Assembly: GCA_963720545.1 (NCBI GenBank) | Contig: OY970399.1 | Span: 2,304,001 to 2,368,000 of the forward strand | Length of the DNA: 64,000 bases | Direction of reading: 5' to 3' | Source of the DNA: an uncultured Acidobacteriota bacterium | GTDB lineage: Bacteria; Acidobacteriota; Vicinamibacteria; Fen-336 | Shown here: in pieces, positions 32,652 to 49,755 of the stretch | Numbering within the stretch: position 1 is the first letter of the stretch | Layout: every line of letters starts with the position of its first letter | Made by a program: the position numbers and the translations under genes | Notes under the pieces: model-generated | Seen by the model: only the letters and a program-made list of their open reading frames with translations | Told to the model about the DNA's origin: nothing | Database searches by the model: none

Positions 32652-33773
32652 ATGGAACCGGCGCTCCTGACTGGCCTCACGTTCCTGGCAACTGCAAGCC
32701 TCAGCGCCGCGCTGGTGCCGCCGGTGCGCGCGCTGGCGCGCCGCGTCGACGTCATCGACCGTCCCGGAGGACGCCGCGGCCACGTGGCACCCACCCCGCG
32801 CCTCGGCGGGCTCGCCATCTTCTGCGCGTTCTTCGCCATCGTCCTCGGCGGCTACTGGCTCGCCCTCACGATGGGCGAAGCCGGCATCGCGCGCACCACC
32901 CTCGGCGCGGCGGCGGAGCGGCTGCGCGAGGCGTGGCGGGTCGAGGGCAAGCTGCTCGGCATCATGGCAGGCAGCATCCTCATCTTTGCGGTCGGCATGA
33001 TGGACGACATGTTGGGCGCCCGCTTTCCGGCGCTCGCCAAGCTGCTCGGCGAGCTGGCCGCGGCAGCGATCGTCGTCTATGCGGGCGTGCACACCACCTT
33101 CATGCCCGCCCACTGGATGAACGCGGTGGTGACGCTCCTGTGGATCGTCGGCATGACCAACGCGTTCAACCTGCTCGACAACATGGACGGGCTCGCCGCC
33201 GGCGTCGCGTTCATCGCCGCCTTTGCCCTGCTCGTCAATGCCTGGAGCCTGGGCACCTTCTTCGTCTGCCTCATCCTGGTCGCCTTCATGGGCAGCCTGC
33301 TGGGTTTCCTCCTCTACAACTTCCACCCGGCGTCCATCTTCATGGGTGACGCCGGCAGCCTGTTCATCGGCTTCGTCATGGCGACGATCACGCTGCTCGA
33401 GACTTATGTCTCGAAGGCGTCGAGCTCGCTGTTCCCGGTGCTGATGCCGGTGCTGGTGCTGGCGGTGCCGCTCGTCGATACCGCCACGGTGGTGATCATC
33501 CGGCTGCTCGAGCGGCGTCCGATCTACGTCGGTGACCAGCGCCATCTCTCGCATCGGCTGGTGGCGCTCGGCTTCTCGCGTCCCGCGGCGGTACTGCTCA
33601 TCTACTTGTTTTCGCTCTGCCTCGGGCTGGGTGCCGTCTCCCTGGTCGATGCGACCCCCCTGCAAAGCGCTCTGGTCCTGCTCCAGGCGGTCGTTTTTGT
33701 CACGCTGCTCCTCTTTCTGATGTTCGCGCCGCGCGGGACTGCCCGCGATGCGCTCCAAAGGTCCACCGACTGA
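32652..33773 (+). CDS. wecA: WecA/TagO-like undecaprenyl-phosphate HexNAc-1-P transferase
   Basis: PRLGG, GMMDD, NAFNLLDNMDGL, IFMGDAGS, HLSHRL. Confidence 0.85.
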   Translation: MEPALLTGLTFLATASLSAALVPPVRALARRVDVIDRPGGRRGHVAPTPRLGGLAIFCAFFAIVLGGYWLALTMGEAGIARTTLGAAAERLREAWRVEGKLLGIMAGSILIFAVGMMDDMLGARFPALAKLLGELAAAAIVVYAGVHTTFMPAHWMNAVVTLLWIVGMTNAFNLLDNMDGLAAGVAFIAAFALLVNAWSLGTFFVCLILVAFMGSLLGFLLYNFHPASIFMGDAGSLFIGFVMATITLLETYVSKASSSLFPVLMPVLVLAVPLVDTATVVIIRLLERRPIYVGDQRHLSHRLVALGFSRPAAVLLIYLFSLCLGLGAVSLVDATPLQSALVLLQAVVFVTLLLFLMFAPRGTARDALQRSTD

Positions 33774-35161
33774 TGTCCACCGCGCTCTTCCTCGCCGCGT
33801 TGCTGCTGGCCCAGGCCCCGGCACCGGCACCGACGCCCTCGCCGGACGTGAGGGCGCTGTTTCCAGAGCCCGAGGCGCCCCCCGAACCGCCGCCGCCCGC
33901 CCCGAGTGAAAACGGACCGCCAGGCATCGCCATCGGCGCGGGCGCGCTGCAGCCGTCGCTGGTCCTGTCGCTGATCCGCGGCGACATCTTTCCGAGCGCC
34001 ACCGCCGAACGCCCGTTCAAGGTGCGCGACACCTACTTCCAGATCGAGCCGCGCCTCAACTTCGTTTATCCGGTGGGCGCGGGCGGCGAGTTTCGCGCCG
34101 GTTACGAACCGGCGTTTCGCCGCGGCAGCGCCCTTCAAGAGGTGACAGCGTCGAGCCACCGGCTCGGCGCCGGGATCGAACTGCCGCTGGGAACGAGCTT
34201 CCTGCTGCGCGCCGCCGATCAGTGGTCGAAGGGCATCCTCGACGTCACCCAGGTGGATCCCGGCCAGGAATATTTCTTCCGCCTGCAGCCCTTCAGGCAC
34301 AACGTCTTCGACGTGAATGGCACGCTCGCGGGCGGCGACACCAGCATCGACGGCGGCGCCACCCTCAGCCGCGTCACGATCGAGCCCGGCTCGGGCTTCT
34401 TCTCGAACCGCTCGCAACAGTATTACGGCGGCATCAGCCGCAGCCTCGCCGCCACGCTGCGGCTGCGCCTCGGTTACACCCGCGAGCGCATCCCGCGCCC
34501 CATCGACCGGCCCGAGGTCGAGAGCCGCGCCAACATCTACACGCTCAGCCTCGACGGCACCCTGGCACCGCTGCTTGACGGGCAGATCTCGGCCGGCTAT
34601 CGCGACCAGAAGACGCCGAACGCCGGCGCCGGCGGCCGGAGCTTCAAGGGTCTGGTGGTCGCCGGGCGCCTCGAGAAGGAGTTCACGCGTTCGACCCGCC
34701 TCGCGCTCTGGGGCAGCCGCGACACCCGCGTGGACCTGCTGCGCCGCAACGGGCTCTACGCGACGACCGGCGGCCAGCCCGAAATCGCACTGCCCACCAC
34801 CTCCGCCTTCGAGGAGAACGCCTTCTACGTCGCCAAGGCATTCAACTCCGAGCTGCAGTTCGAGCTGCCTCTGCAACTCACGGCGCGCGCCGCGGCGCAG
34901 TGGCAGAACAACGAATACCGCACCGTCGCCTCGGCCATCGGCAAGCGGCGCAGCGACGATTTTTTCGGCTGGGCGCTGGGCTTCGGGCGTTCCCTCACAC
35001 GCCACGCCTGGGTGAGAATCGACTATCGTCGTGACCGCCGGGACTCCAACATCGACGTCTTCGACGTCAGGACCGAGGCGCTGCTGGTGCAGCTCGGCTT
35101 TGGCTTCCAGGGATCGCGCGGCCGGCCGAAATTCAGCGGCGGCAGCGAGAGCCAGGACTAG
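33773..35161 (+). CDS. Outer-membrane beta-barrel of polysaccharide export (BBP2-like)
   Basis: Signal peptide, Pro-rich linker, amphipathic beta-strands; sits directly before wza-wzc. Confidence 0.65.
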   Translation: MSTALFLAALLLAQAPAPAPTPSPDVRALFPEPEAPPEPPPPAPSENGPPGIAIGAGALQPSLVLSLIRGDIFPSATAERPFKVRDTYFQIEPRLNFVYPVGAGGEFRAGYEPAFRRGSALQEVTASSHRLGAGIELPLGTSFLLRAADQWSKGILDVTQVDPGQEYFFRLQPFRHNVFDVNGTLAGGDTSIDGGATLSRVTIEPGSGFFSNRSQQYYGGISRSLAATLRLRLGYTRERIPRPIDRPEVESRANIYTLSLDGTLAPLLDGQISAGYRDQKTPNAGAGGRSFKGLVVAGRLEKEFTRSTRLALWGSRDTRVDLLRRNGLYATTGGQPEIALPTTSAFEENAFYVAKAFNSELQFELPLQLTARAAAQWQNNEYRTVASAIGKRRSDDFFGWALGFGRSLTRHAWVRIDYRRDRRDSNIDVFDVRTEALLVQLGFGFQGSRGRPKFSGGSESQD

Positions 35162-35165
35162 GCGG

Positions 35166-36029
35166 ATGAAACTACTGTTGCGCAGCGTCAGGTTCGCATC
35201 GCTCGCCGCCGGCCTGCTCCTCGGCCTGGTCGCGGAAAGCCGCGCCCAGGAAACCGCGGCCGCCGCGCCGGACGAGTATCGTCTCGGCGCCGGCGATGTC
35301 CTCGACGTCATCGTGATCGGCAACCAGGACGCCTCACGCGTCGCACCCATCGATCCCGGCGGCACCATCACGCTGCCGCTCGTCGGCGAGGTGCCGGTGG
35401 CCGGTCGCACCCTCGCGGAGGTGCGCCAGGAGGTGACGGCACTGCTCGCGAAGGACTACCTCGTGAACCCGCAGGTTGACGTGCGCATCAAGGAGTACGG
35501 CAGCCGTTTCGCGCTCGTCGTCGGCGAGATGCGCCAGCCGGGCCGGCGCCCACTGCGCGCCAACAGCCGGCTCATCGACGTGCTCATGGAGGCCGGCGGC
35601 TTCACGCCGCAGGCCTCGGGCGATGTGCTCATCACGCGCGTCGATGGCACGTTCCCGGACGGCAGCAAGAGCCTGCGCGTGCGCATCACCGCGCAGAACG
35701 CGACCGCAGCCGACCACGCCGGCGTCGAAACCACGCTGCACGCGGGCGACATCATCGTGGCGGCGCCCAAGGCCTACGTCATCGTCGAAGGCGAAGTCGC
35801 GCGTCCGGGGCGCTTCGTGATCGACGGCAACCTCACGATCACCGGCGGCATCTCCATCGCCGGCGGCCTCACCCGCTACGGCAGCAGCACCGTGAGGATC
35901 CGCCGCACCGATGCCGCGGGCAAGACCGCGATCACGGAGGTCGATCTGAAGGCGATTCGCAAGGGCAAGGCCGAAGACGTGCTGCTGCAGGCGGACGACG
36001 TCGTCAGCGTCAGCCGCCGCCGGTTCTAG
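35166..36029 (+). CDS. wza: Polysaccharide export protein (Poly_export + SLBB)
   Basis: YRLGAGDVL, GTITLPLVG, GEV.RPG, L..DDVV. Confidence 0.88.
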   Translation: MKLLLRSVRFASLAAGLLLGLVAESRAQETAAAAPDEYRLGAGDVLDVIVIGNQDASRVAPIDPGGTITLPLVGEVPVAGRTLAEVRQEVTALLAKDYLVNPQVDVRIKEYGSRFALVVGEMRQPGRRPLRANSRLIDVLMEAGGFTPQASGDVLITRVDGTFPDGSKSLRVRITAQNATAADHAGVETTLHAGDIIVAAPKAYVIVEGEVARPGRFVIDGNLTITGGISIAGGLTRYGSSTVRIRRTDAAGKTAITEVDLKAIRKGKAEDVLLQADDVVSVSRRRF

Positions 36030-36061
36030 GCGCCAGTGGCTTCGCCCATGGGGAGGACGTA

Positions 36062-38185
36062 GTGCCCGCACCGATCACGCTCGCATCGCCGCCAGGTCCG
36101 GCGCTGCCGGGTGCGCACGCCGAAGAGGCGCGCTTCGACCTGCGCTACTACGCGCACCTCCTGTGGCGCGCGCGGCTGCTGCTGGTGGCGGCCGCCCTCC
36201 TGGGCCTCGGGCTGATGACGCTCTACGGCTACCTGCAGACCCCGGTGTACCGCGCCAACGCCATGCTGCAGATCGAGCCGCCGACGCCGATGCTCATGAA
36301 CGTCACCGATTCGCTTCTCGGCAGCGGCTCGTTCTGGCAGAACGCCGACTTCTACAACACGCAGTTCAAGATCCTCAAGTCGCGGGGCCTGGGCGACAAG
36401 GTGGTGGCGGCGCTGAAGCTCGACGCGCAGCCCGAGTTCAAGGGCGCGCGCGATCCGGGCTCCATCTTCATGGGGCACGTCGAGATCGAGCCCATCCCGG
36501 AGAGCCGGCTCGTCAACGTCAGCATCCGCCACACCGACCCGCAAGCCGCGGCCGACTGGGCGAACGCGCTCGCCGACCTGTTCATCCGCGAATCGGTCGC
36601 CAACCGCATGCAGCAGGCGACGCAGGTGATGGACTGGCTCACCGAGCAGGTGAAGCAGACGCAGGCGTCGATGCAGACGGCGCAGACCGAGCTCATCCAG
36701 GGCCTGCAGCGCCGGGACCTCGCGACGACGCCGGGCGCGCAGTCGACGATGGACGCGTCGATCGAAAGGCTGCAGACCGAGTACCTGGAGGCCAAGACGC
36801 GGCGCATCACCATCGAGGCGGCGCTGACGCAGATCCGCGACCTGCGCAGCCGCGACCTCGGACTGCAGTCGGTGCCGCAGGTGGCGGCCGACCAGCAGAC
36901 CGCGGCGCTCGACGCCGAGCTCGCGGGTCTCGAGTCGCAGCTCTCCATCCTGCGCGGGCGCTTTCGCGAGGGCCACCCCGAAGTGCTGAAGGTGACGGCG
37001 CAGATCGCGCAGACCAGGCGCGCCGTCGCCGACCGGGCCAACGCGGTGGCGGCCGGGCTGCAGGCGGAATACACGCAGCTGCAGAAGCGCGAGTCCGAGC
37101 TGCAGGGCGCGATCGGCGGACAGCGTGCCGCCGCCGTCAACCAGTCGCGCGCCACCGCCGAGATGGAGACGCTGCGCAAGCGCACCGACTCCACCAAGAA
37201 CCTCTACGACGTGCTGCTGCAGAAGCTGAACGAGACCAACATCGCCGCCTCGATGCGCAACAGCAACGCCTCGGTGGTGGAGCGCGCCACCGTGCCGGTC
37301 GCGCCGGTGTGGCCCGACAAGCGCCGCATCGCGCTCTTCGGCCTCGGTGCGGGCCTGCTGGCTGGCGTCGGCCTGGTGCTGTTGCGCGATCACCTCGACA
37401 ACACCTTCAAGGATCCGGAGGAAGTCGAGCGCTACCTGCACACCGAACTGCTCGCGGCGATTCCCAGGGCCGGTGATCCGCGCCTGCTGACCGAGGCTTA
37501 CCAGAACCTGCGCACCGCGCTGCTGTTCGCGCGCCGCTCCGAAGAAGGCCAGATCGTGCTGATCACCGGCACGGCGCCGCAGGAAGGCAAGACCACGACG
37601 CTCGTGAACCTCGGCAAGCTGCTGGCGGCGGCGGGAGAGTCGACGATCCTCGTCGACTGCGACCTGCGGCGCGCGCAGGTGCACGATCGCCTGGGGCTGC
37701 CGCGCGAGCCAGGCGTCACCAACTACTTCACCCAGCACCTCGGCATCGACACCCTGGTGCAGTCGGGCGGCGCGCCCGCGCTCGCGGCGCTCACCGCCGG
37801 ACCGCTGCCGCCCAATCCGCCGGCGCTCCTCGCCCGCGGCCAGCTCGACAACCTGTTTGCCGAGCTGCGGCAGCGCTACCGGTGGATCCTCGTCGACTCA
37901 CCGCCGCTCGCCTCCGTGACCGACGCGCTGCTCCTGGCGCGCCGTTCGGACATGGTGGTCGTGATCGTCAAGCACAACGGCATCGACAAACGGCTGGTGC
38001 GCCGCGCCATTGGCGCGCTACGGCGGGTCGGCGCGCCGCTACTCGGCGTGGTACTGAACATGTTGGAACTGCACGTCGGCAACTACTACTACTACTATTA
38101 CAACCGGCAGGAGAGTCCGCCGGGCGCTGTACCGCAGGTCATCAAGCCCCACTTGCGGCGCGTCGCCGCAGGAGACGACCGCTAG
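36062..38185 (+). CDS. wzc: Polysaccharide co-polymerase / BY-kinase
   Basis: Two TM segments flanking a coiled coil; PQEGKTT, DCDLRR, VDSPP; C-terminal YYYYYY cluster. Confidence 0.92.
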   Translation: MPAPITLASPPGPALPGAHAEEARFDLRYYAHLLWRARLLLVAAALLGLGLMTLYGYLQTPVYRANAMLQIEPPTPMLMNVTDSLLGSGSFWQNADFYNTQFKILKSRGLGDKVVAALKLDAQPEFKGARDPGSIFMGHVEIEPIPESRLVNVSIRHTDPQAAADWANALADLFIRESVANRMQQATQVMDWLTEQVKQTQASMQTAQTELIQGLQRRDLATTPGAQSTMDASIERLQTEYLEAKTRRITIEAALTQIRDLRSRDLGLQSVPQVAADQQTAALDAELAGLESQLSILRGRFREGHPEVLKVTAQIAQTRRAVADRANAVAAGLQAEYTQLQKRESELQGAIGGQRAAAVNQSRATAEMETLRKRTDSTKNLYDVLLQKLNETNIAASMRNSNASVVERATVPVAPVWPDKRRIALFGLGAGLLAGVGLVLLRDHLDNTFKDPEEVERYLHTELLAAIPRAGDPRLLTEAYQNLRTALLFARRSEEGQIVLITGTAPQEGKTTTLVNLGKLLAAAGESTILVDCDLRRAQVHDRLGLPREPGVTNYFTQHLGIDTLVQSGGAPALAALTAGPLPPNPPALLARGQLDNLFAELRQRYRWILVDSPPLASVTDALLLARRSDMVVVIVKHNGIDKRLVRRAIGALRRVGAPLLGVVLNMLELHVGNYYYYYYNRQESPPGAVPQVIKPHLRRVAAGDDR

Positions 38186-38206: not shown

Positions 38207-39565
38207 CTACTCCTGGCTCGACGGTGCGCTGGCCTGGACCGGGCTCGGGACTTCCGGGATCGGCACGAAGGGGGAGACGCCAGGAACCGTCGGCGGCTCG
38301 CCGGCAGTCGGAGCCGGCTGCCCGGGAACTGCGACGTGAGTGACCTGCTGTCCCGACGGCGGGTTGGGCTGGGGCGGTGCCACGTCCGCGCAGCTTGCGC
38401 CCATGCTGGCGCGGTTTTCCTTGCGCAGGAAATCAACGGCGTCGACCATCTTGCTGCGCGTGACCGGACCGTCCGGGCCGAGTTCGAGGCCGAGGCCCTT
38501 GAGGGCCGCGACGTACGCGTCCGCGCCGGCCTGCTTGCGCTGCACACGCACAGCTTCGACGGTGGAGTTGGGGCCGAGGCGCACCGCGACCGCGTGTGGG
38601 CCGGCAGTGAAGTCGGATGACAGCACCGGCGTCCATTCGCCCGCAGCGGTGCCGCGCCGCGAGCCGGTGCAGACCACTTGCTTCTTGCAGCCGTCTGCCG
38701 TCCACTGCTGCCCGCCGTTCAGGTTGCCCTTGACGGAGACGGTGTAGAGGCCGGCTTCGGGAACCTGGAACGTGAGCAGGCCTTCGGCGCCTTGCGGGCC
38801 GGAGTCGAAGTTGTCCGTAACGGCCGCCTGCCGCAGCGCCGGCAGGTAGCGTGCGATGGCGCTGCCCGGCAGGTCGAGCGGCACGCCGGCGGGGGCGAGT
38901 TCCGATTCCTTGTCGAGCGCGCGCAGCGTCGTCACCGCCACGTCGTCGGTGGTCGCGACCTTCGCGGTCTGCCAGCCGCCGAGCGGCTCGATGTTGGTGA
39001 CGCACGGCGGCACCACTTCGAAGCGATCGAGCGAAGTGCCGGGCGGCAGCAGCACCGAGGCGAGGTAAGCGCCGCCTGCGAGCTGCACGCGGCCGCCGTC
39101 GACCCAGGCCGCCTGCGCCGCGGGGCGCAGCGTGAACGTAGCGAGCGGCTTGTCGCCCTTGCGATCCGTCACTTCGACGGACGCCGGCTTGTCGGCCGGG
39201 CCGCTGAGGTGTGCGCGAATCTGGTATTCGCCGGGGCGTGCGACGGTGAGCGGATAGCTCGCCTGCCCGACGCCCGCTTCGGCGGCGACCGCGTTCGGCG
39301 GGTCGCCGAGCACGCGCACCGCATCGGCTTTCTCGAACTCGCTGCCCTTGAAAGCCAGGCTCGAGTGCCACGCGAGAGCGCCGAAGGCAACCGACGCCGT
39401 GTCCATTCCCGGGCTTTCGAGGTCGAGGCCACGCAGCATCATGCGCGCCCATTCCGGGTGGCTGACGGCGGACACCCGAGGGTCTCCGTAGAGCGGATAA
39501 AGCAGAGCGAAGCCGACGGTAACCGCAGCCGCGACCGCAATGCCGAGGGAGCTTTTCGACTGCAT
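38207..39565 (-). CDS. Exported/membrane-anchored hypothetical protein with beta-sandwich (CBM-like) segments and a Pro-rich tail
   Basis: Hydrophobic N-terminus; YPLTVARPGEYQI and FQVPEAGLYTVSV repeats; codon usage matches host genes. Confidence 0.7.
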   Translation of the reverse strand: MQSKSSLGIAVAAAVTVGFALLYPLYGDPRVSAVSHPEWARMMLRGLDLESPGMDTASVAFGALAWHSSLAFKGSEFEKADAVRVLGDPPNAVAAEAGVGQASYPLTVARPGEYQIRAHLSGPADKPASVEVTDRKGDKPLATFTLRPAAQAAWVDGGRVQLAGGAYLASVLLPPGTSLDRFEVVPPCVTNIEPLGGWQTAKVATTDDVAVTTLRALDKESELAPAGVPLDLPGSAIARYLPALRQAAVTDNFDSGPQGAEGLLTFQVPEAGLYTVSVKGNLNGGQQWTADGCKKQVVCTGSRRGTAAGEWTPVLSSDFTAGPHAVAVRLGPNSTVEAVRVQRKQAGADAYVAALKGLGLELGPDGPVTRSKMVDAVDFLRKENRASMGASCADVAPPQPNPPSGQQVTHVAVPGQPAPTAGEPPTVPGVSPFVPIPEVPSPVQASAPSSQE

Positions 39566-39590: not shown

Positions 39591-39639
39591 TTGACAACTT
39601 GTCCACGGCTAACTTAGCCTCCGAGGCCAGGCATGTCAA
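39591..39639. promoter_or_regulatory. Overlapping divergent sigma70-like promoters
   Basis: Plus strand TTGACA (39591) - 18 - TAGCCT (39615). Minus strand TTGACA (39639-39634) - 17 - TAAGTT (39616-39611). Confidence 0.55.
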
Positions 39640-40691
39640 AGTGTATCCAACACACTCTCATAGACATAGCCCGGGTTCGTCACCTCAAGCGGGTGCCTTC
39701 CGGCATGCCCGGGAACGACCTTTGCCGCGCCGCCGAACGGCAGGGGGTCCTGGCCCTCTTCGGCCCCTCGAAACCACCCGTCTTCGCCGCCGCGATGGTG
39801 CGCGAGGCGGTGCGCACCACCCGGCTCCTCGACCTCGCGCTGCGCCTCCAGGCGCACCTCGAAACACTCGGTGTGCGCTCGCTCACTTTGAAGGGCGCAG
39901 CACTCCACGGCACGGCTTACCCGGATGTCGAGAGCCGTCCGATGGTCGACGCCGACCTGTTGGTGCTCGACGACATCGCGAGCGCCGAGGCGGCGGCGCG
40001 TTCGCTCGGCCTCGTGTTCGTCGAGCGCGCCGATCACGCCGTCGCGTATCGCGAACCCCGAAGTGGCGCGATGGTCGAGCTGCACTGGAGCGTCACCTCG
40101 GCGCCCGGGTTCTTTCCGGTCGACAAGGAATCGCTTTGGCGCGGCCGCCGCCGGCTCGCCACGGGCCTCTTGGCGCCGTCGGCCGCCGACACGCTGGTGC
40201 TGCTCGCGCTGCACGCGGCGTTTCAGCACGGCCTGGTGCTGCGGCTGGTGCAACACGGCGACTTCCACGCCTTGTTGGCGAGTGAGGGGCCCGATCCGCG
40301 GCGCATCGTCGCGCGCGCCGCCGAGTGGCGTGCGGGCCTCGCCGTGGTTGCTGCACTGCAGATCGCCGGCCACTTGCTCGGCACGCCGGACCGAGCGGCA
40401 GCGGTGCTCGCCGAGCTGCGCGATTTCCGGCTGCGCGGGCCGCTCGCGCGCCACGTCGCGAGCGCGGCGGAAACGCCCGAACGCTTTCTCGAGCCGGCCG
40501 AGCCGCGCCTCGCGATGGTGCGCCTCTCACTGGCGCGCGGGCACCGACTCGACCTCGTGCGCCGCACGCTCTGGCCGCTCTCGCCCGACGACGGGAGCGC
40601 GCGCGGCTTCACTCGCGCCGCTTTGGGCGTGCGCCGCGGCGCGCGCCTCGTCGGCCGCCATTTCGCCGGCTGGGCCGGCAGCGCGTCGTGA
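39633..40691 (+). CDS. Nucleotidyltransferase (NTP_transf_5-like)
   Basis: LKGAAL...YP....RPMVDADLLV and VELHW motifs. The real start may be ATG 39705. Confidence 0.82.
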   Translation: MSKCIQHTLIDIARVRHLKRVPSGMPGNDLCRAAERQGVLALFGPSKPPVFAAAMVREAVRTTRLLDLALRLQAHLETLGVRSLTLKGAALHGTAYPDVESRPMVDADLLVLDDIASAEAAARSLGLVFVERADHAVAYREPRSGAMVELHWSVTSAPGFFPVDKESLWRGRRRLATGLLAPSAADTLVLLALHAAFQHGLVLRLVQHGDFHALLASEGPDPRRIVARAAEWRAGLAVVAALQIAGHLLGTPDRAAAVLAELRDFRLRGPLARHVASAAETPERFLEPAEPRLAMVRLSLARGHRLDLVRRTLWPLSPDDGSARGFTRAALGVRRGARLVGRHFAGWAGSAS

Positions 40692-41119
40692 TCGATCACG
40701 ACGGCGCCGCGAGCGCAGCCGTCGCGCGCGAGGCCGTCGCGTTGAACCTCGCGGCCGCGGCCTCGGTGTGCATCCGCGTCAGCGGCCGCTGCATGGAACC
40801 GGCGCTGCTCGCGGGCGAACTGGTGGAGCTGCGGCGCACGCGGCCGCGGGTGGGCGACGTGGTGCTGGCGCAGCTGCCGCAGGGCCTGCGGCTGCATCGC
40901 CTGCTGCTGAAGCTGCCGCTCGGCGCTGGCTGGCGCACCAAGGGCGACCGCTGCGACCCGTGGGACGCGAAGATCTCCGGCCGCGAGGTGATCGCCACGG
41001 TGGTGCGCTCGTGCGCCACCGGCCGTACGCCCCATAGCCGCGGATTGGCTCTGCGTTCGCTCGCGTCTGCGCTACGCTGGCGCCTGCGCGTGCAGCGCAT
41101 CAAGCCGGAGGGACAATGA
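40688..41119 (+). CDS. S24/S26-fold peptidase with Cys in place of the catalytic Ser
   Basis: GTG overlaps the NTase stop; RVSGRCMEP.L..G, GDVV, LHRL, TKGD motifs. Confidence 0.75.
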   Translation: MIDHDGAASAAVAREAVALNLAAAASVCIRVSGRCMEPALLAGELVELRRTRPRVGDVVLAQLPQGLRLHRLLLKLPLGAGWRTKGDRCDPWDAKISGREVIATVVRSCATGRTPHSRGLALRSLASALRWRLRVQRIKPEGQ

Positions 41120-41433
41120 CGCACAACCCGCTGCGCACCATCTACGCGCGCTCCGACCGCATCGTCGGCCGGCGTATCGGCCCGGAGTTCGTGCTGGTGC
41201 CGCTCGTCGGCCACGGCGCCGAGCTCGAGGCGATCTACAACCTCGGCGGCGCGGGCGTCTTCATCTGGGAGCGGATCGACGGCCGCACCGACGGCGACAC
41301 CATCGTCGACGAGATGATCGCGGCGTTCGACGTGCAGCGCCCGGAAGCGGCGGAAGACTACGCGACCTTTACCCGCCACCTCGTCGAGATCGGCGCCCTG
41401 AAGGTGGTTTCGGCGCCGATCCGCCGGAAATGA
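41116..41433 (+). CDS. PqqD-family RiPP recognition element
   Basis: 105 aa; RRIG.E.VLVP, IYNL...G.FIWERIDG, F...L.EIG. Confidence 0.88.
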   Translation: MTHNPLRTIYARSDRIVGRRIGPEFVLVPLVGHGAELEAIYNLGGAGVFIWERIDGRTDGDTIVDEMIAAFDVQRPEAAEDYATFTRHLVEIGALKVVSAPIRRK

Positions 41434-42301
41434 TCGCGCCCACGGCTGCCACCGCCGAGGCGTCCTTGCGAAAGGCGAGCGAGTAGCTCGGCACCGCGCG
41501 CGCGAAGCTCTCTGCGGTGCGCAGCACCGCGAAGAAGGCAGCCGGCTCCCACGGCGGCAGGAACGAAAAGGCCAGCAGCTGGCTGGCGAAGCCCTGCGGC
41601 TCGATGCGCGTGAGCGCGGTGGTGCGCGACTGCTTCAGCACGAACAGTGCCCGCAGCCGCAACGCGCGCGGCGCGGCATGGCGCGCGGTGCCGTGCCACG
41701 GCGTGCCGTACGCCCACCACTGACCGCGCCGCCGGCGGATCACGAGACGATCGTCGCTCAACACGCTGGCGAGCGGAGCATGCCGGCGAAACAGGCGGCT
41801 GATCGTGGACTTGCCCGCCCCCGAATGGCCGGTGAACGCCACCAGGCCGCGGCCGGTGTCGACGCCGCTCGCATGCAGCACCAAGCCGCCGTCGTAGGCG
41901 AAGTGGTGCTGCAGCAGCAGCTCGTCGAGCGGGAACGAAAGCGCGAAGCCGCGGTGAGCGAGGTACTCGCCCGGCGCCAGGTAGAGCGTGCCACGGCGGC
42001 GGCGACGGTCGATGAGGAGGCCGCGTGCCGGCGGGCCCTTGCCCATGGGGCGGCGAAAGACGTAAAGGATCTTCGCGCCGACTTCGTACGCGCGCCAGGT
42101 TCCGCCCGATTCGAAGACCGGTGCTGCGTCTGGCACCGGCACCGGCGCCAGCACCACCTCGAGGTCGATGTCGGCGCCGCTTTTTGCGCCGAACGCTTCG
42201 TAGCCGCGTGGCAGGCGCAGCGCCGGTGCCCTGGTGTCGTAGCGGAGCCTGATGGTCCTGCCGCCGATGCGCAGCCGCAGGCTGTGGGCGCGCCGCCGCA
42301 G
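41369..42301 (-). CDS. HPr-kinase-like P-loop protein (ScmC/HprK-related)
   Basis: VLHASGV, FTGHSGAGKST, LSDDRLVI, YGTPWHG. No ATG is present; the start is CTG 42301 or a GTG inside the rSAM 3' end. Confidence 0.78.
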   Translation of the reverse strand: MRRRAHSLRLRIGGRTIRLRYDTRAPALRLPRGYEAFGAKSGADIDLEVVLAPVPVPDAAPVFESGGTWRAYEVGAKILYVFRRPMGKGPPARGLLIDRRRRRGTLYLAPGEYLAHRGFALSFPLDELLLQHHFAYDGGLVLHASGVDTGRGLVAFTGHSGAGKSTISRLFRRHAPLASVLSDDRLVIRRRRGQWWAYGTPWHGTARHAAPRALRLRALFVLKQSRTTALTRIEPQGFASQLLAFSFLPPWEPAAFFAVLRTAESFARAVPSYSLAFRKDASAVAAVGAIISGGSAPKPPSGRRSRRGGG

Positions 42302-42306
42302 GACGG

Positions 42307-43587
42307 CTAGCTGCGGGCCGCGGCCGCTGCGGCGCGGACCGGGCGCTCGATCTGGATCAGCGCTTGCGCCTGCGGCTGCGCGGGTTCCGAGTGGCTGCAC
42401 GAACCGCAGCCGCCGAGGTGAATCTCGGCATCGGGTCGCGCGGCGAGCACGCCCGCTCCGACGCAGCACGTCGCGTCGCGGCGATGGCCGCTGTCCTTGC
42501 CGAGCGCCGCGAACGCGCGCAGGTGCGTGACCTCGCAGAAGTTGCGCAGCAGCGCCGTCGGGTCGCCGGTGGCAAGCTCGGCCGAACCCGGGCAGTTGCC
42601 GCAGCCGCTGCGCAGCGTGCACGACTGGCATACCGAGTTGTCCTGCCACTGGCGCGAGCGAGCCTGCGGCAGGAACTCGTTCCAGCCGGTGTCGAAGCTG
42701 CCTTGCTTCAGGTCGTAGGAAGCCTTGCGCGCCAGCTGGCACAACTGCAGCTGGCCATAGGGATCGACGGTGAACGACATCTGCCCGGCGCCGCACTCGA
42801 ACACCTGCTCGGCCACGGCGATGCGCACCTCGCCGCCCGCGGCCGCCGCCGCCGGCGCAAAGGCGTTCCAGATCTTCGCGCGGGTCAACTCGTCCGCGAG
42901 GTCCACCGCGAGAATGTCCTCGGCGTTCACCTGCAGCTCGCCGTTGCGGTTGGCGCCGCAGTCGACGCGCGCGTTCAGCAGGCTGTCGTGGCGGAAGCTG
43001 GTGCCGAGGTTCGCGGCGAAAGCGCGCATCGCCTCGATCTCGTGGACGTTCCAGGAGAGCACCATGGTCTTGAGCTTGAGGTTCAGGCCGCGGCGATAGA
43101 GGCGCTCGATGCCGGCTATGCACTTCTCGAACGAGCCCGGCACGCGGGTGACGCGGTCGTAGGTCGCCTTCGTCATCCCGTAGAGCGTGACCTCGATGGC
43201 GGCGGGACGATGCGCGCTGAGGAAGTCGGCGATGTCCTCGGTGACCATGGTCGCGTTGGTGAAGATGCCGACGCGCAGGCCGCGGCCCAGCGCGTGCAGG
43301 TAGATCTGCCTGAAGTCCCTGCGGATCAGGACCTCGCCGCCGGTGAGCAGCAGCTCGAAGGCGCCGGCGTCCGCCACCTCGTCGATCAGCGTCTTCACCC
43401 GTTCCGTCGACAGCTCGCGGCGCATCTCTTCCGCGTCGCCCGCCGGCTTGTTGACGTAGCAGTGGACGCAGTTGAGGTTGCAGCGGAAGGAGGTCTCGAT
43501 GGTTCCGTCCCACGGCAGACGCCGGCCGCTGACGTCGAGGCTGTGGGCGAAATCGGCGATCGAGATTTCGTCGAGTACGGTCGTCAT
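42307..43587 (-). CDS. Radical SAM/SPASM peptide maturase
   Basis: CNLNCVHC, TGGE; SPASM motifs CGAG...DPYG...C and CQSC.....CGNCP...C. Confidence 0.92.
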   Translation of the reverse strand: MTTVLDEISIADFAHSLDVSGRRLPWDGTIETSFRCNLNCVHCYVNKPAGDAEEMRRELSTERVKTLIDEVADAGAFELLLTGGEVLIRRDFRQIYLHALGRGLRVGIFTNATMVTEDIADFLSAHRPAAIEVTLYGMTKATYDRVTRVPGSFEKCIAGIERLYRRGLNLKLKTMVLSWNVHEIEAMRAFAANLGTSFRHDSLLNARVDCGANRNGELQVNAEDILAVDLADELTRAKIWNAFAPAAAAAGGEVRIAVAEQVFECGAGQMSFTVDPYGQLQLCQLARKASYDLKQGSFDTGWNEFLPQARSRQWQDNSVCQSCTLRSGCGNCPGSAELATGDPTALLRNFCEVTHLRAFAALGKDSGHRRDATCCVGAGVLAARPDAEIHLGGCGSCSHSEPAQPQAQALIQIERPVRAAAAAARS

Positions 43588-43612
43588 CCGGGCTTCCCGA
43601 GCCCCGCGCGGG

Positions 43613-43774
43613 CTAGCTGCCCTGAGCCGAGTTGATGAGGGTGCCGCCGCGGTTGCAGACGTTCGCGGACACCATGTTTCGCTTGCAGCCCGTCACGGCC
43701 AGCTCATCGGCAACAAGGTTCACTTTGCGAATCCGGGGTGTCTCGTAAGTGGCCTTCGCCTGCTTCGTCTTCAT
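43613..43774 (-). CDS. RiPP precursor peptide, 53 aa (not in ORF track)
   Basis: Hand translation: MKTKQAKATYETPRIRKVNLVADELAVTGCKRNMVSANVCNRGGTLINSAQGS*. SD AGAGGAG lies 3 nt before the ATG; the stop is 25 nt upstream of the rSAM start. Confidence 0.85.
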   Translation of the reverse strand: MKTKQAKATYETPRIRKVNLVADELAVTGCKRNMVSANVCNRGGTLINSAQGS

Positions 43775-43804
43775 TGACTCCTCTTCCGGCTCGACGGCTC
43801 GGGT

Positions 43805-43872
43805 AGCCTAAGCCCTACCTCGCGCGGGTGTAAAGCCGCGCGTTGACACTGTGCTCTGCCTCACGCTACCCT
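43805..43872. promoter_or_regulatory. Back-to-back promoters for the precursor (minus) and fur (plus)
   Basis: Minus strand TTTACA (43834-29) - 18 - TAGGCT (43810-05). Plus strand TTGACA (43843) - 18 - TACCCT (43867). Inverted repeat CGCGCGG-N8-CCGCGCG at 43821-43842. Confidence 0.55.
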
Positions 43873-43886
43873 CGCCATTCGAAAAA

Positions 43887-44375
43887 GTGAGCGCCCGGGG
43901 AAAGAACGAAACGGCCCGCGAAGAGCGCGAAGTCCTCACCGCGCACCTCGCGGCCAACGGCCTGAAACGCAGCGCCCAGAGAGACGCCGTGGTCGAGGTG
44001 TTCTTCCGCTCCGACAGCCACCTCTCGGTGGACGACCTGCTGAAGCTGGTGAAGCGCAAGAACCCGGCGGTGGGACGCACCACCGTCTATCGCACCTTGA
44101 AGCTGCTCACCGCCGCCGGCCTCGCGACCGAGCTGCAGCTGCGCGGCGAGACCCGCTTCGAGCGCGAATACAAGCGCCACCATCACGACCACTTCATCTG
44201 CAACGGCTGCGGCGCGATCTTCGAGTTCTCGAACGACGAGATCGAGCGCGCTCAGGACGATGCCGCGCAGGAGATCGGCTTCACCATCCAGGGCCACCGC
44301 CACCAGATCTTCGGCTTGTGCGCCGCGTGCACGGCCAAGGCGGCGGCGCCGCACGCCGCATCCCGGCCCGCCTAA
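43887..44375 (+). CDS. fur: Fur-family metalloregulator
   Basis: TVYRTLKLL, HHHDHFICNGCG, C-terminal CAAC. Confidence 0.88.
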   Translation: MSARGKNETAREEREVLTAHLAANGLKRSAQRDAVVEVFFRSDSHLSVDDLLKLVKRKNPAVGRTTVYRTLKLLTAAGLATELQLRGETRFEREYKRHHHDHFICNGCGAIFEFSNDEIERAQDDAAQEIGFTIQGHRHQIFGLCAACTAKAAAPHAASRPA

Positions 44376-44396
44376 CGTGCTGGACAGCCCGCGCGG

Positions 44397-45506
44397 GTGA
44401 GGATCGACCGCGTCGAGGTACGAGAAATCCGGCTGCCGCTGCTGCACCCGTTCGAGACCTCGTTCGGCCGCACCACCGAGAAGGTGTTCCTGCTGGTGTC
44501 GGTGTCTGCCGACGGGGTCACCGGTTACGGCGAGTGCGTCACCGATCCCGATCCCTTCTACCTGCCCGAGACGAACGGCACGGTCGCGCACATCCTGCGC
44601 GACTTCCTGGTGCCATTGGTGCTCGGCCGCGAACTGGCCGGGCCCATGGACGCGTGGCCGGCGCTGGCGCGGGTGCGCGGTCACAACATGGCGAAGGCCT
44701 GCCTCGAGATGGCGATCTGGGAATTGTGCGCCCGTCGCGACTCGCTGCCGCTCTACAAGCTGCTCGGCGGCCGCGGCGGCCGCATCGCTTCGGGCGTCTC
44801 GATCGGCCTGCAGCCGAGCGCCGCGACCCTGGTGCAAAAGGTCGCTCTCGAGGTGGCAGCCGGCTACCGCCGCATCAAGGTCAAGATCAAGCGCGGCCAG
44901 GACCTCGAGCTCGCCGCGGCGGTGCGCGCCGAGTTTCCCAAGGTGCCGCTGATGGTGGACGCCAACAGCGATTACCACCTCGGCGATGCCGCGCACCTGC
45001 AGAAGCTCGACGCCTTCGACCTGATGATGATCGAGCAGCCGCTCGCGTGGAACGACATCGGCGACCACGCCATCCTGCAGCGGCAGCTGCAGACTCCGGT
45101 GTGCCTCGACGAGTCGATCGGCGGCCCCGAGGACACGCGCCTCGCCCTGCAGCTTCGGGCATGCCGCATCATCAACATCAAGGTGGGGCGGGTCGGCGGC
45201 TTCGCGATGGCACGCCAGGTGGAAGCGGCGTGCCGCGCCGCCGCGGTGCCGGTGTGGTGCGGCGGCATGCTCGAGTCGGGCATCGGGCGCCTCGCGAACG
45301 TCCACCTGCAGACGCTGCCCGGCTTCACGCTTCCCGGCGACACCTCGGCGAGCGCGCGCTACTTCGCCGAGGACCTCGTCGATCCGCCGGTCACCGTGAG
45401 CCCGCAGGGCGAGATCGACGTTCCCGAGCGTCCCGGGATCGGCCACGAGGTGGTCTCTTCGCGGGTCGAGAAGGCGACGCAGTGGCGCGAGGAATGGCGC
45501 GCCTGA
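44397..45506 (+). CDS. menC: o-succinylbenzoate synthase / N-acylamino acid racemase (enolase superfamily)
   Basis: PFETSFG, KVKIK, VDAN, IEQP, LDES, WCGGMLESGIGR. Confidence 0.85.
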   Translation: MRIDRVEVREIRLPLLHPFETSFGRTTEKVFLLVSVSADGVTGYGECVTDPDPFYLPETNGTVAHILRDFLVPLVLGRELAGPMDAWPALARVRGHNMAKACLEMAIWELCARRDSLPLYKLLGGRGGRIASGVSIGLQPSAATLVQKVALEVAAGYRRIKVKIKRGQDLELAAAVRAEFPKVPLMVDANSDYHLGDAAHLQKLDAFDLMMIEQPLAWNDIGDHAILQRQLQTPVCLDESIGGPEDTRLALQLRACRIINIKVGRVGGFAMARQVEAACRAAAVPVWCGGMLESGIGRLANVHLQTLPGFTLPGDTSASARYFAEDLVDPPVTVSPQGEIDVPERPGIGHEVVSSRVEKATQWREEWRA

Positions 45507-48776: not shown

Positions 48777-49202
48777 GTGTTCAAAGGCACTTACCGCTAC
48801 AAGATCGACCCGAAAGGACGCCTTCCGGTGCCGCCGGCGTTTCGCCGCGCGCTCGCCCGGCAGGGCCAGTCGCTGGTGGTGACGCCGCTCGATTCCTGCC
48901 TCGCCGTCTACACCGAAACCGAGTGGGAAAGGCTGCGCCAGCAGCTCGAGAGCCTGCCGGCCTTTTCTCGCCAGGCGCTCACGCTCACCCGGCTGGTGGC
49001 GAGCCGTGCGGTCGATGCGGCACTCGACGTCCAGGGCCGCCTGCTGTTGCCGGCGCCGCTGCGCTCCGCCGCGCATCTCACCCGCGACGCGGTCGTCGTC
49101 GGGGTCTTGAGCCGGTTCGAGATCTGGGGCGCCGCCTCCTGGGACAGCTTCGTGAAGGACGCCGAGAAGCTCCTCGACGAAGCCGGGTTTCCGGGAGTGT
49201 GA
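48777..49202 (+). CDS. mraZ: MraZ transcriptional regulator (copy 1)
   Basis: MFKG.Y...IDPKGRL..P..FR; LDVQGRL; FEIW. Confidence 0.9.
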   Translation: MFKGTYRYKIDPKGRLPVPPAFRRALARQGQSLVVTPLDSCLAVYTETEWERLRQQLESLPAFSRQALTLTRLVASRAVDAALDVQGRLLLPAPLRSAAHLTRDAVVVGVLSRFEIWGAASWDSFVKDAEKLLDEAGFPGV

Positions 49203-49251: not shown

Positions 49252-49310
49252 TTGACTAAGGTTCCGACGGGCCCATAGACTCGCCGTGGCTTTTTGTGGG
49301 CGAAAGTGGG
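49252..49310 (+). promoter_or_regulatory. Promoter plus three GTGG direct repeats (MraZ operator) before mraZ copy 2
   Basis: TTGACT (49252) - 18 - TAGACT (49276); GTGG at 49286, 49296 and 49306. Confidence 0.72.
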
Positions 49311-49311
49311 C

Positions 49312-49755
49312 ATGCTTCGCGGTAATCATCCAGCTCGGGTCGACGACAAGGGACGCCTCAAGATCCCCAACGGATTTCGCTCGTTCATCACGTCCCAGCA
49401 CGGCACCGAGCTGTTCGTCACGAGCCTCAGCGGCGAGCACGTCCGCATCTATCCCATGCCGATCTGGCTCGAGATCGAGCGCAAGCTTCTGACCGTCCCG
49501 TCCACCAACCCGTCGCGGGCCCGCTTCCTCGACCGGGTGAACTTCTTCGGCCAGGCCGTTTCGCTCGACCCGCAGGGCCGGGTACTGCTGCCGCAGCTGC
49601 TGCGCGAACGCGCCGCGATGCAGGGCGACGTCTGCGTCCTCGGCCTGCAGAACCAGCTCGCCGTGTGGAACAAGGAGCGCCTCAGCGAGCGGCTCTTCAA
49701 GCAGGACCCGTTCACCGACGAGGACGCCCGCGCGCTCTCGGAGTTCGGGATCTGA
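49312..49755 (+). CDS. mraZ: MraZ transcriptional regulator (copy 2)
   Basis: MLRG....VDDKGRLKIP..FR; LDPQGRVLLP. Confidence 0.9.
   Translation: MLRGNHPARVDDKGRLKIPNGFRSFITSQHGTELFVTSLSGEHVRIYPMPIWLEIERKLLTVPSTNPSRARFLDRVNFFGQAVSLDPQGRVLLPQLLRERAAMQGDVCVLGLQNQLAVWNKERLSERLFKQDPFTDEDARALSEFGI

Follow-up and report, generated by a model that had tools for sequence, protein, structure and literature searches.

A conserved small open reading frame beside a radical-SAM gene probably encodes the precursor of a RiPP cassette in Acidobacteriota

Introduction

What is encoded by an open reading frame (ORF) of only 53 codons that ends just ahead of a radical-SAM (rSAM) gene, and which of the genes around it act on its product? 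The locus lies in a 64,000-nucleotide stretch of contig OY970399.1 from an uncultured Acidobacteriota bacterium (the whole stretch is hereafter called the window), and to our knowledge the natural products of this phylum are largely unknown. An earlier note on this DNA had proposed that the ORF encodes an unannotated precursor peptide, with a leader that is bound by a RiPP recognition element (RRE) and a core that holds two cysteines. Here we find that the 53-residue ORF is a real, conserved gene under purifying selection, and that it very probably encodes the precursor peptide of a RiPP cassette spread across Acidobacteriota.

Results

The small ORF is conserved beside radical-SAM genes

Translation of the ORF (Table 1) gave a peptide identical to the 53-residue sequence quoted in the earlier note, and the ORF lies directly upstream of the rSAM gene as described there, with the rSAM start 25 nt past the peptide stop. 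The strong Shine-Dalgarno sequence that the note had reported is also present, and an SD-like core (GGAG, GAGG or AGGA at -17 to -5) precedes 17 of 30 homologous peptide ORFs. Two other statements were not confirmed. The peptide is not unannotated, as an identical 53-residue protein is already held, with no name shown, in public protein collections (NCBI, Logan, ENA), and the promoter of its own that had been predicted was not recovered by a sigma-70 scan of positions 41000 to 44500 (0 sites), the best promoter-like element by eye, TTTACA-N17-TAGGCT (5/6 and 3/6), falling under the scan threshold. One RNA run (1 of 20 listed runs; 0.05 share of words) yielded a 261-nt contig inside the rSAM gene (43041 to 43301, 1 mismatch) and a 34-nt fragment; the peptide ORF had no coverage in that run, which is compatible with transcription or with none.

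Whether a small ORF accompanies homologous rSAM genes had been set beforehand as a test of the proposal. Such a homologous ORF adjoins the rSAM gene at 28 of 30 loci from relatives (the exceptions being loci L022 and L028), and the main idea, a precursor peptide tied to a radical-SAM gene, holds. The dN/dS ratio was 0.08 to 0.55 in 20 of 20 pairs. A word-based protein search recovered nothing beyond the peptide and a single frameshifted variant, so that a profile search was needed to reveal the family. The profile from our main alignment (A1) matched 38 of 401 sampled Acidobacteriota genomes, in 27 of 228 genera, and 1396 cluster representatives at E<=1e-3 (60 at <=1e-10) in a library of 1.84 billion proteins. 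A contig scan with a smaller alignment (A2) returned 11 loci, all from Vicinamibacteria or Acidobacteriota, by a single narrow pattern that is uninformative on other phyla. The window's genome carries one copy of the precursor gene.

Residues Y10, P13, E24, C30, K31, C40, G52 and S53 are invariant in A1 (25 sequences for Y and P). Searches of Pfam and NCBIfam, even at E<=10, assigned no family to the window peptide or to eight other members, bar a weak match of one member to the StsA sactipeptide model (E 0.0084), and the public names of homologues are "hypothetical protein" or none.

The peptide gene belongs to a recurrent cassette

Wherever the peptide family is encoded, a SPASM radical-SAM gene lies no more than about 1.5 kb away; genes for a PqqD protein and for a kinase-like protein of HprK/PEPCK fold are almost always near it, and a gene for an S26B-like peptidase often is. 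In loci fetched around the matches of the phylum-wide profile scan (L043 to L071), an rSAM homologue lay at most 1.5 kb from the peptide at every locus (29/29) and a kinase-like gene was present in 24 of the 29. Eighteen wider loci held rSAM and kinase-like genes without exception (18/18 each), and the PqqD gene and the peptide in 17/18 each. Homologues of the window's NTP_transf_5 gene occur in many Vicinamibacteria-type loci, and tblastn found none in 18 distant wide loci.

Table 1. Positions of the peptide gene and its proposed partners within the window
Feature	Position	Strand	Basis
Precursor peptide gene, 53 aa	43613..43774	-	Translation, alignment A1 invariants, dN/dS, profile matches
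Shine-Dalgarno-like GGAAGAGGAG	43778..43787	-	AGGAG core 3 nt upstream of ATG
Radical SAM / SPASM enzyme, 426 aa	42307..43587	-	PF04055 at 77.2 bits, above cut-off
HPr-kinase/PEP-carboxykinase-fold P-loop kinase-like protein	41369..42400	-	Weak HprK models, profile, fold
PqqD-family RiPP recognition element, 105 aa	41116..41433	+	PF05402, E 7.7e-13, above cut-off
Soluble archaeal-type (S26B, Sec11/SipW-like) signal-peptidase-like protein	40688..41119	+	Profile against PDB, fold
NTP_transf_5 nucleotidyltransferase-family protein, 352 aa	39633..40691	+	PF14907 at 117.8 bits, cut-off 31.2

The PqqD, peptidase-like and nucleotidyltransferase genes form a convergent operon, in which the PqqD gene comes last and its start overlaps the peptidase-like stop by 4 nt; because this operon is on the strand opposite to the peptide, co-regulation of the peptide with it is an assumption. 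No exporter or immunity gene was identified adjoining the cluster. Wzc/Wza/WecA-type genes do adjoin it in the window, and we rejected such adjacency to EPS genes as a conserved rule because only 4 of 18 distant loci, and none of 8 larger Vicinamibacteria-type loci, had Wza/Wzc homologues at a distance of up to 8 kb. Absent from the earlier note are the pairing of a near-invariant terminal serine with a kinase-like gene, the genes for the Sec11/SipW-like peptidase and the NTP_transf_5 protein, and the minority status of the two-Cys form of the peptide.

The leader carries an RRE-recognition motif

The proposed leader (residues 1 to 29) contains Y10-E-T-P13-R-I15 and ends in E24-L-A-V-T-G29. 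The RRE-recognition motif claimed for it, Y-x-x-P-x-[I/V/L], proved to be conserved, with Tyr10 and Pro13 invariant, and Y10-E-T-P13-R-I15 is of the form [Y/W]xxPx[L/V/I/F/A], described as the motif bound by discrete RREs of the lasso type and of the linear polyphosphorylated peptide (LPP) type in the available text of two reports (PMC13381572; PMC10368454). The PqqD protein scored 49 bits against PF05402 (cut-off 23.4), and among NCBIfam models it comes closest to lasso_PqqD_Bac, with an E of 1.3e-7 that misses the cut-off.

Binding of the precursor by this PqqD protein, as suggested earlier, stands as a structural prediction graded "weak support": the predicted complex scored 0.49 against 0.01 for the best control. 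It thereby reached a mark that is attained by 116 of 157 solved complexes and by 2 of 215 mismatched pairs, and a score of 0.60 or less while reaching the mark was seen in only 18 of those 157 solved complexes and in both mismatches. The runs agreed in at least 92% of contacts, with a partner pLDDT of at least 51. Solved RRE-leader complexes exist, and the pass may reflect likeness to these.

The radical-SAM enzyme is of SPASM type

The rSAM protein has CxxxCxxC at residues 36 to 43, a seven-Cys SPASM-type pattern and a Cys-rich C-terminal tail, and is without an N-terminal RRE domain. Its best NCBIfam models (NirJ2, MftC, AhbD, StsB, ScmE and PapB) all score far under their cut-offs. MftC, the second-best match, reached 118.5 bits against a cut-off of 265, and the corresponding values were 89.3 against 625 for StsB, 60.2 against 850 for AlbA, 58.2 against 340 for PapB and 61.9 against 381 for PqqE. 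The top models NirJ2, MftC and AhbD do not form thioethers, and curated cut-offs place the enzyme in no named thioether-maturase family. Among solved sequences the thioether-forming SkfB comes closest (E 3.7e-11), and the rSAM gene adjoins the precursor gene as it does for sactipeptides and ranthipeptides. Four rSAM orthologues contain an in-frame TGA, which is the true stop, read through, in three of them and internal in one (L022).

The core has a cysteine framework and a near-invariant terminal serine

The proposed core (residues 30 to 53) is 24 residues long and runs C30-K31 ... C40 ... N48 ... G52-S53. Both cysteines on which the earlier note had based its two-Cys core are invariant in A1, and its leader/core boundary near Cys30 fits the conservation as well as a signal-peptidase-like -3/-1 pattern. 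To describe the family we took the best 150 profile matches and analysed 141, leaving out two long repeat proteins, six sequences missed by the pattern and the frameshifted variant (P0003). For a cut directly before the Cys, position -1 is Gly in 110 and Ala in 13 of the 141, and position -3 is Ala in 78, Val in 31, Leu in 15 and Ser in 10. Cleavage immediately before Cys30 is, by a small margin of preference, where we would place the cut.

Three cysteines are present in 132/141 members, so that the window's two-Cys form is a minority subtype; at position -6 from the C-terminus this subtype has another residue in place of the third framework Cys, most often Asn. Asn, which the earlier note had put forward as a possible thioether acceptor, is common there without being invariant. 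The spacing of the cysteines is kept, and the sequences of the loops between them vary widely. The peptide ends in Ser in 140/141 members and in GS in 126/141. A thioether from Cys30/Cys40 would be the most likely outcome of the rSAM reaction; that the product itself carries Cys-derived thioethers we rate at somewhat less than an even chance.

The partner proteins resemble a leader peptidase, an HPr kinase and a nucleotidyltransferase

When compared with the PDB as a profile, the peptidase-like protein matched SEC11A (E 0.0022), with its Cys35, His70 and TKGD...D aligned to SGSMEP, HR and TKGDNN..DD of SEC11, and its fold matches were LexA, UmuD, SEC11C and SpsB (E of at least 1.7e-3). TIGR02228 matched 6 of 11 members of the family, the best at E 9.4e-7, below cut-off. 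Invariant in 11 sequences are C35, H70, D87 and D93, and in the window's protein Cys35-His70-Asp replaces Ser-His-Asp; the nucleophile position is of Cys type in 17 loci and of Ser type in 15 distant loci. For the SpI-like enzyme LppS (S29/H68/D93), RRE-dependent removal of a leader has been proven (PMC13381572), and by resemblance to LppS the peptidase-like protein is the likely leader peptidase of the cassette.

Where the kinase-like gene starts is uncertain, the candidates being the GTG at 42400 and a non-canonical codon further along. Its product matched HprK_rel_B (E 2.8e-5) and ScmC (E 6.8e-5) below cut-off and stayed under the cut-offs of all HprK models; its profile matched the HPr kinases 2qmh/1jb1 (E 3.5e-5), and a single-sequence search of the PDB gave only P-loop matches to ABC transporters. 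The predicted model (pLDDT 92.1) has PEPCK as its best structural matches (Z 15.0, rmsd 5.6, 257 aligned), and HPr kinase is not among the Foldseek and VIA matches listed, which are filled by PEP carboxykinases. Lasso precursors receive a phosphate on their C-terminal Ser from homologues of HPr kinase and, on this phosphate, a sugar from a nucleotidyltransferase (PMC8498205). By this analogy the near-invariant Ser53 may be the target of the kinase-like protein and be phosphorylated, a proposal to which we give even odds, and the NTP_transf_5 protein is a possible decorator of the phosphorylated peptide. Against this, the two characterised relatives LppK and BsfK phosphorylate core Ser3, not the last residue (PMC13381572; PMC10368454), and position 3 of the window core is Arg.

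Discussion

A RiPP precursor processed by the PqqD, rSAM, kinase-like and peptidase-like proteins is the best overall explanation of the locus, to which we assign a probability of about 0.8, its enzymatic steps being ones that we infer throughout. The leader (residues 1 to 29) would bind the stand-alone PqqD protein through the strand motif Y10-x-x-P13-x-I15, and because the rSAM enzyme has no RRE domain of its own, the PqqD protein would present the precursor to the enzymes. The rSAM/SPASM enzyme would then modify the core, most likely by thioether cross-links from Cys30 and Cys40 as in sactipeptides and ranthipeptides. The kinase-like protein would phosphorylate Ser53, a step with a precedent in the action of HPr-kinase homologues on lasso precursors, and the NTP_transf_5 protein may add onto the Ser53 phosphate. 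Removal of the leader after Gly29 by the Sec11-like peptidase, with Cys as its nucleophile here, would release a 24-residue core beginning Cys-Lys.

The alternative that survives best, unlikely as it is, takes the product to be a linear phosphopeptide that is RRE-bound, phosphorylated, perhaps glycosylated, and cleaved, with its cysteines free or in a disulfide and the rSAM acting on another substrate or performing an epimerisation or methylation. The LPPs of Bacillota (LppA/LppB/LppS/LppK/LppN; Popov et al. 2026, Nat Commun, PMC13381572) have as their core gene set an RRE, an SpI-like peptidase, a kinase resembling HprK and an NTP transferase, and from the available text of that paper several features recur in the window. 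The RRE is discrete and of PqqD type, and the leader peptidase (a proposed one here) is soluble and resembles archaeal-type signal peptidases. Genes for an HprK-like kinase and for an NTP transferase are present in both, and both leaders carry a [Y/W]xxPx[L/V/I] motif, the LPP leader consensus being shared in its first part only. LPP clusters are placed in capsule loci, and Wzc/Wza/WecA-type genes adjoin the window's cluster. That the rSAM is above no thioether-maturase cut-off and that the family's third Cys is dispensable in the window's subtype would also agree with a linear product. However, the rSAM is the peptide's most constant neighbour (29/29 and 18/18 loci) and its gene immediately adjoins the peptide, Cys30 and Cys40 are invariant, and because three is an odd number, disulfides alone cannot use up the cysteines of the family (132/141). 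LPPs are defined as linear and without another class-defining enzyme, whereas the window has a SPASM rSAM as constant partner, and the available text of the LPP paper mentions neither radical SAM nor Acidobacteria (PMC13381572). Further differences from that description are the Cys at the nucleophile position of the window's peptidase where the LPP enzyme has Ser-His-Asp, and the short core with its Cys framework and terminal Ser where LPP precursors span 35 to 200 aa with variable C-termini and phosphorylation at core Ser3 (PMC13381572). No MsbA-like exporter was seen beside the window's cluster.

More doubtful still is the idea that the peptide, like those of the PQQ and mycofactocin pathways, gives rise to a small redox cofactor or signal; the rSAM and PqqD proteins would then act on the C-terminal Gly-Ser or on Cys-Lys, and a small fragment would be kept. 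The match to MftC as second-best model, the match to PqqE, the single copy in the window's genome and the strongly conserved framework with its invariant C-terminal dipeptide are in keeping with such a role, as is the presence of a peptidase and a transferase, both of which the mycofactocin pathway includes. The rSAM nevertheless scores far below the MftC and PqqE cut-offs, the peptide ends in Gly-Ser with neither a C-terminal Val-Tyr nor a Glu/Tyr pair, variable loops between cysteines of fixed spacing are typical of a peptide product rather than of a cofactor, and no dependent dehydrogenase genes were seen adjoining the cluster.

A lasso-peptide precursor is highly improbable, even though the YxxPx[I/L] leader motif, the lasso chaperone as nearest NCBIfam model of the PqqD protein, the nearest named Atlas cluster (a lasso leader family, 0.81, a lead only) and the HPr-kinase and nucleotidyltransferase genes, typical of paeninodin-type clusters (PMC8498205), all point towards one. 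Phosphorylated and phosphoglycosylated lasso peptides (paeninodin, pseudomycoidin, Bsf) are described as having a leader of YxxPxL type to which a PqqD-like B1 protein binds, as proposed here. A homologue of HPr kinase phosphorylates a Ser in their linear precursor, which in the paeninodin type is the C-terminal one (the window precursor also ends in Ser), and a nucleotidyltransferase, to be set beside the product of the window's NTP_transf_5 gene, adds a hexose to the phosphate (PMC8498205, PMC10368454). But the proposed core (CKRN...QGS, residues 30 to 53) is without any Asp or Glu and therefore offers no macrolactam acceptor, which in a lasso peptide would stand at core position 7 to 9, no cyclase gene is present among the neighbouring genes, and the transglutaminase-like B2 leader-protease family PF13471 has no match above cut-off genome-wide (best 21.9 bits, far from the cluster); in their stead the window has an rSAM and an S26B-like peptidase. 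That the ORF arose by chance in GC-rich DNA between genes might be read from its shortness, from the many spurious ORFs of GC-rich genomes (126 ORFs of at least 30 aa in 16 kb) and from the lack of a Pfam or NCBIfam family. This reading is refuted: frame, length, motifs and position are all conserved across the phylum, dN/dS is below 1 in all 20 pairs, and the profile has 1396 matches.

Returning to the RiPP precursor, two more known systems come close to the window's cassette. In the SynChlorMet (SCM) cassette (TIGR04248 ScmD, TIGR04249 ScmC, TIGR04250 ScmE, TIGR04251 ScmF), SPASM rSAMs occur together with a protein like PqqD and a P-loop protein like HprK, as here, and all four models match weakly, each under its cut-off (ScmD 29.7 against 100, ScmC 22.3 against 125, ScmE 88 against 400, ScmF 74.9 against 400); SCM has two rSAMs, whereas the window has one. 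This cassette is a bioinformatic definition on which we found no paper, and we know of no characterised product or substrate. Sactipeptides and ranthipeptides (SkfB, AlbA, StsB, PapB and CteB types) share with the window a short precursor, a Cys core and an adjoining SPASM/Twitch rSAM; the StsB, AlbA and PapB models match the window rSAM, none at cut-off, and a cross-link here would be an extrapolation from these classes. Their RRE is an N-terminal domain of the rSAM, whereas that of the window is a separate protein, and the kinase-like and S26B-like partners belong to the window's cassette and are not features of either class.

Our literature search found no paper describing a system of rSAM, HprK and PqqD proteins and no named family for the peptide, and neither HPr kinase nor Acidobacteria is mentioned in the main texts of the RRE-Finder and rSAM compendium papers, whose supplements may list such clusters. 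The peptide gives a well-supported substrate family for a very common, unnamed radical-SAM/kinase cassette of soil Acidobacteriota, and its invariant Y10, P13, C30, K31, C40 and S53 make the function of the rSAM and HprK-like proteins directly testable. It also connects three lines that were described separately, namely phosphorylated lasso peptides, the LPP family of 2026 and the SCM cassette; one toolkit, common to them, seems to be combined with varying core enzymes.

More tentatively, and as a reading that we hold to be possible rather than probable, the family may represent a large RiPP class in which the lasso/LPP toolkit of leader, RRE, kinase and S26B peptidase is joined to a SPASM rSAM, giving a Cys-cross-linked product with a (poly)phosphate, perhaps a sugar, on the last Ser; in the window's Vicinamibacteria-type clade the peptidase nucleophile would have changed from Ser to Cys, and in the two-Cys subtype the third Cys would have been replaced. 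If this is true, loss of the third Cys (at -6, mostly to Asn) may alter the cross-link made there, and the peptidase of the window's clade would be a Cys-His-Asp enzyme on an S26 fold, a Ser-to-Cys change of nucleophile that is of interest to protease enzymology.

A conserved precursor peptide adjoins the radical-SAM gene

We found that the minus-strand translation of the small open reading frame (ORF) is identical to the 53-residue peptide claimed in the earlier note, and that its Shine-Dalgarno-like sequence and its site directly upstream of the radical-SAM (rSAM) gene are likewise as claimed, the rSAM start lying 25 nt past the peptide stop on the same strand. The promoter claimed for the peptide was not recovered: a sigma-70 scan of 41000-44500 returned 0 sites, and the sole promoter-like sequence picked out by eye was TTTACA-N17-TAGGCT. 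Nor is the peptide strictly unannotated, as the exact 53-aa protein is already in public collections with no name shown; no family for it was found in Pfam or NCBIfam. The gene divergently oriented to it belongs to the Fur family.

Features of the peptide cassette in the window
Feature	Position	Strand	Remark
Precursor peptide, 53 aa	43613-43774	-	translation
Shine-Dalgarno-like GGAAGAGGAG	43787-43778	-	AGGAG core 3 nt before ATG
rSAM/SPASM protein, 426 aa	42307-43587	-	next gene after peptide
P-loop kinase-like protein	41369 to ~42400	-	downstream of rSAM; weak HprK-related kinase B and ScmC matches
NTP_transf_5 protein	39633-40691	+	PF14907, 117.8 bits
Peptidase-like protein, 143 aa	40688-41119	+	second operon
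PqqD-family protein	41116-41433	+	PF05402

Searching the rSAM protein against 61 genomes of relatives gave a match in 36 (E<=1e-30), and a small ORF of the same pattern (51-68 aa) stood beside the homologous rSAM gene in 28 of 30 fetched loci; no matching ORF was found at the other two (L022 and L028). Eight positions (Y10, P13, E24, C30, K31, C40, G52 and S53) are invariant in an alignment of homologous peptides (n = 25 sequences), and dN/dS was 0.08-0.55 in 20/20 pairs (Nei-Gojobori), indicating selection on the protein. A profile built from this alignment matched 38 of 401 sampled phylum genomes and 27 of 228 genera. The relatives carrying matches were Vicinamibacteria/Acidobacteriota in a genome scan that ran one narrow pattern and so does not bound the peptide's taxonomic range. 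In a library of 1.84 billion cluster representatives, 1396 matched the profile at E<=1e-3 (60 at <=1e-10), nearly all of them 50-65 aa long and aligned to their last residue; two long repeat proteins were false hits. The peptide finding is real, and the main reading of the earlier note holds.

From the best 150 of these 1396 representatives, 141 were analysed, leaving out the two repeat proteins, six missed by the regular expression, and P0003. The latter, from a metagenome contig, is a 62-aa variant (93% identity to the window peptide over 79% of it) that agrees with it across the leader and the start of the core and then diverges, and looks like a frameshift. In one relative (L021:2703-3076, minus strand), two precursor genes, both of the two-Cys type, stand in tandem upstream of the rSAM gene.

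Linkage of the cassette genes

Among 29 loci fetched by peptide-profile match alone (L043-L071, 1.5 kb either side), an rSAM homologue was present in 29 and a kinase-like gene in 24. When 18 distant loci were enlarged to ~16 kb, rSAM and kinase-like genes were found in 18/18 and PqqD and peptide genes in 17/18 each, usually in the order PqqD - rSAM - peptide - kinase-like. A motif scan also recovered the peptidase-like gene, at 32 distinct loci, and the nucleotidyltransferase was found mainly at Vicinamibacteria-type loci. In the window, the NTP_transf_5, peptidase-like and PqqD genes form a second operon, translationally coupled by 4-nt overlaps and convergent with the peptide operon; the 3' ends of the PqqD and kinase-like genes overlap by 65 nt (41369-41433).

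The cassette is best described as a radical-SAM RiPP system that draws on the toolkit of lasso and LPP peptides: their type of leader, RRE, kinase and signal-peptidase-like protein. The nearest defined systems are the SynChlorMet cassette models, the linear polyphosphorylated peptide (LPP) family and phosphorylated lasso peptides. No rSAM-plus-HprK cassette was described in the literature searched, which took in the large rSAM and RRE surveys at the level of their main texts, and the LPP paper (PMC13381572) mentions neither radical SAM nor Acidobacteria.

Proposed leader recognition and removal

The YxxPxI leader motif proposed earlier fits [Y/W]xxPx[L/V/I/F/A], which is recognised by discrete lasso-type RREs (PMC13381572; PMC10368454); its Y10 and P13 are among the invariant residues. 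The rSAM protein opens directly with its CxxxCxxC region; lacking an RRE domain, it needs PqqD as a separate partner. A predicted PqqD-precursor complex scored 0.49 versus 0.01 for the best control (graded 'weak support'), although solved complexes are similar and the score may reflect likeness only.

If the cut falls just ahead of the invariant Cys, position -1 is Gly in 110 and Ala in 13 of the 141 representatives, and position -3 is Ala in 78, Val in 31, Leu in 15 and Ser in 10. Signal peptidases prefer small residues at -1 and -3, with which this sequence pattern agrees.

The family profile of the peptidase-like protein best matched SEC11A/C, eukaryotic signal peptidase catalytic subunits (E 0.0022), its G-x-C-M-E-P, H-R and T-K-G-D...D aligning on S-G-S-M-E-P, H-R and T-K-G-D-N-N..D-D. 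C35, H70, D87 and D93 are invariant across 11 sequences, and archaeal-type signal peptidase I was the best NCBIfam match in six of these 11, under cut-off. The model (pLDDT 86.9) matched LexA, UmuD, SEC11C and SpsB at E >= 1.7e-3 only. By motif scan, the nucleophile position held Cys at 17 Vicinamibacteria-type loci and Ser at 15 distant loci. In this S26B (Sec11/SipW-like) peptidase-like protein an invariant Cys occupies the place of the family's catalytic Ser, possibly a natural change of nucleophile from Ser to Cys within the signal-peptidase fold. LppS, shown to be the RRE-dependent leader peptidase of the new RiPP family LPP, is an SpI-like protein (S29/H68/D93) with a Ser nucleophile (Popov et al. 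2026, PMC13381572); the window's protein has Cys35 at that position.

Core chemistry

Three Cys were present in 132/141 representatives and two in 9/141, the window peptide being of the two-Cys minority type. We tentatively favour thioether cross-links for the core, since invariant cysteines in a short core adjoin a SPASM enzyme. The closest solved sequence to the rSAM protein is the thioether-forming SkfB (E 3.7e-11); its best models (NirJ2, MftC, AhbD, StsB and ScmE) are all far under cut-offs. Most members have an odd number of Cys, which speaks against a core held by disulfides only. A lasso ring is excluded by a proposed core free of Asp and Glu; a lasso B2 family search of the whole genome gave no match above cut-off. 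The third Cys lies six residues from the end in 105/132 three-Cys representatives, a place mostly taken by Asn in two-Cys peptides from genomes and held by Asn in 4/9 two-Cys representatives, and the earlier idea of a nearby Asn acceptor is, from such patterns, a lead only.

After its SPASM region, the rSAM tail (42307-42480, minus strand) is Cys-rich (H-R-R-D-A-T/S-C-C ... G-C-G-S-C), a feature common to close orthologues; distant cassette rSAMs do not align there. The tail may bind an additional metal or cluster. An in-frame TGA lies inside the L022 rSAM orthologue (G037:C2:2333145-2334350), immediately ahead of the SPASM CxxC motif; this locus, with no precursor ORF found, may be decaying or contain a sequencing error.

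The last residue was Ser in 140 of the 141 representatives, with a Gly-Ser ending in 126. The P-loop protein family profile matched HPr kinase structures (E 3.5e-5); the best superpositions of its confident model (pLDDT 92.1) were with PEP carboxykinases (Z 15.0, rmsd 5.6, 257 residues), with HPr kinase absent among the structural matches listed. HPr kinase shares a fold superfamily with PEP carboxykinase. Since the terminal Ser is nearly invariant and a kinase-like gene is constantly present, our best guess, by analogy with lasso precursors, is that the P-loop protein phosphorylates the terminal Ser. In linear lasso precursors, according to a review of lasso tailoring (PMC8498205), HPr-kinase homologues place phosphate on the C-terminal Ser, in some cases more than once, and a nucleotidyltransferase then adds a hexose to that phosphate. 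Counting against terminal-Ser phosphorylation, LppK and BsfK act on core Ser3 (PMC13381572; PMC10368454); core position 3 is Arg in the window peptide and frequently Ser or Thr in relatives.

Genomic surroundings

WecA-like GT4, outer-membrane beta-barrel, Wza-like and Wzc-like genes adjoin the cluster, with polysaccharide genes at 32652-38185 (plus strand). These Wzc/Wza/WecA-type neighbours recall the capsule-locus setting reported for LPP clusters (PMC13381572); Wza/Wzc homologues lay <=8 kb away in only 4/18 distant and 0/8 closer loci. A 452-aa protein (38207-39565, minus strand) with a hydrophobic N-terminus and Pro-rich C-terminus matched no Pfam or NCBIfam family and is kept beside the nucleotidyltransferase gene in two relatives (~43% identity). 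Read from translations, two consecutive plus-strand ORFs (48777-49202 and 49294-49755) are both MraZ-like by eye and lie upstream of rsmH-like and penicillin-binding-protein-like ORFs.
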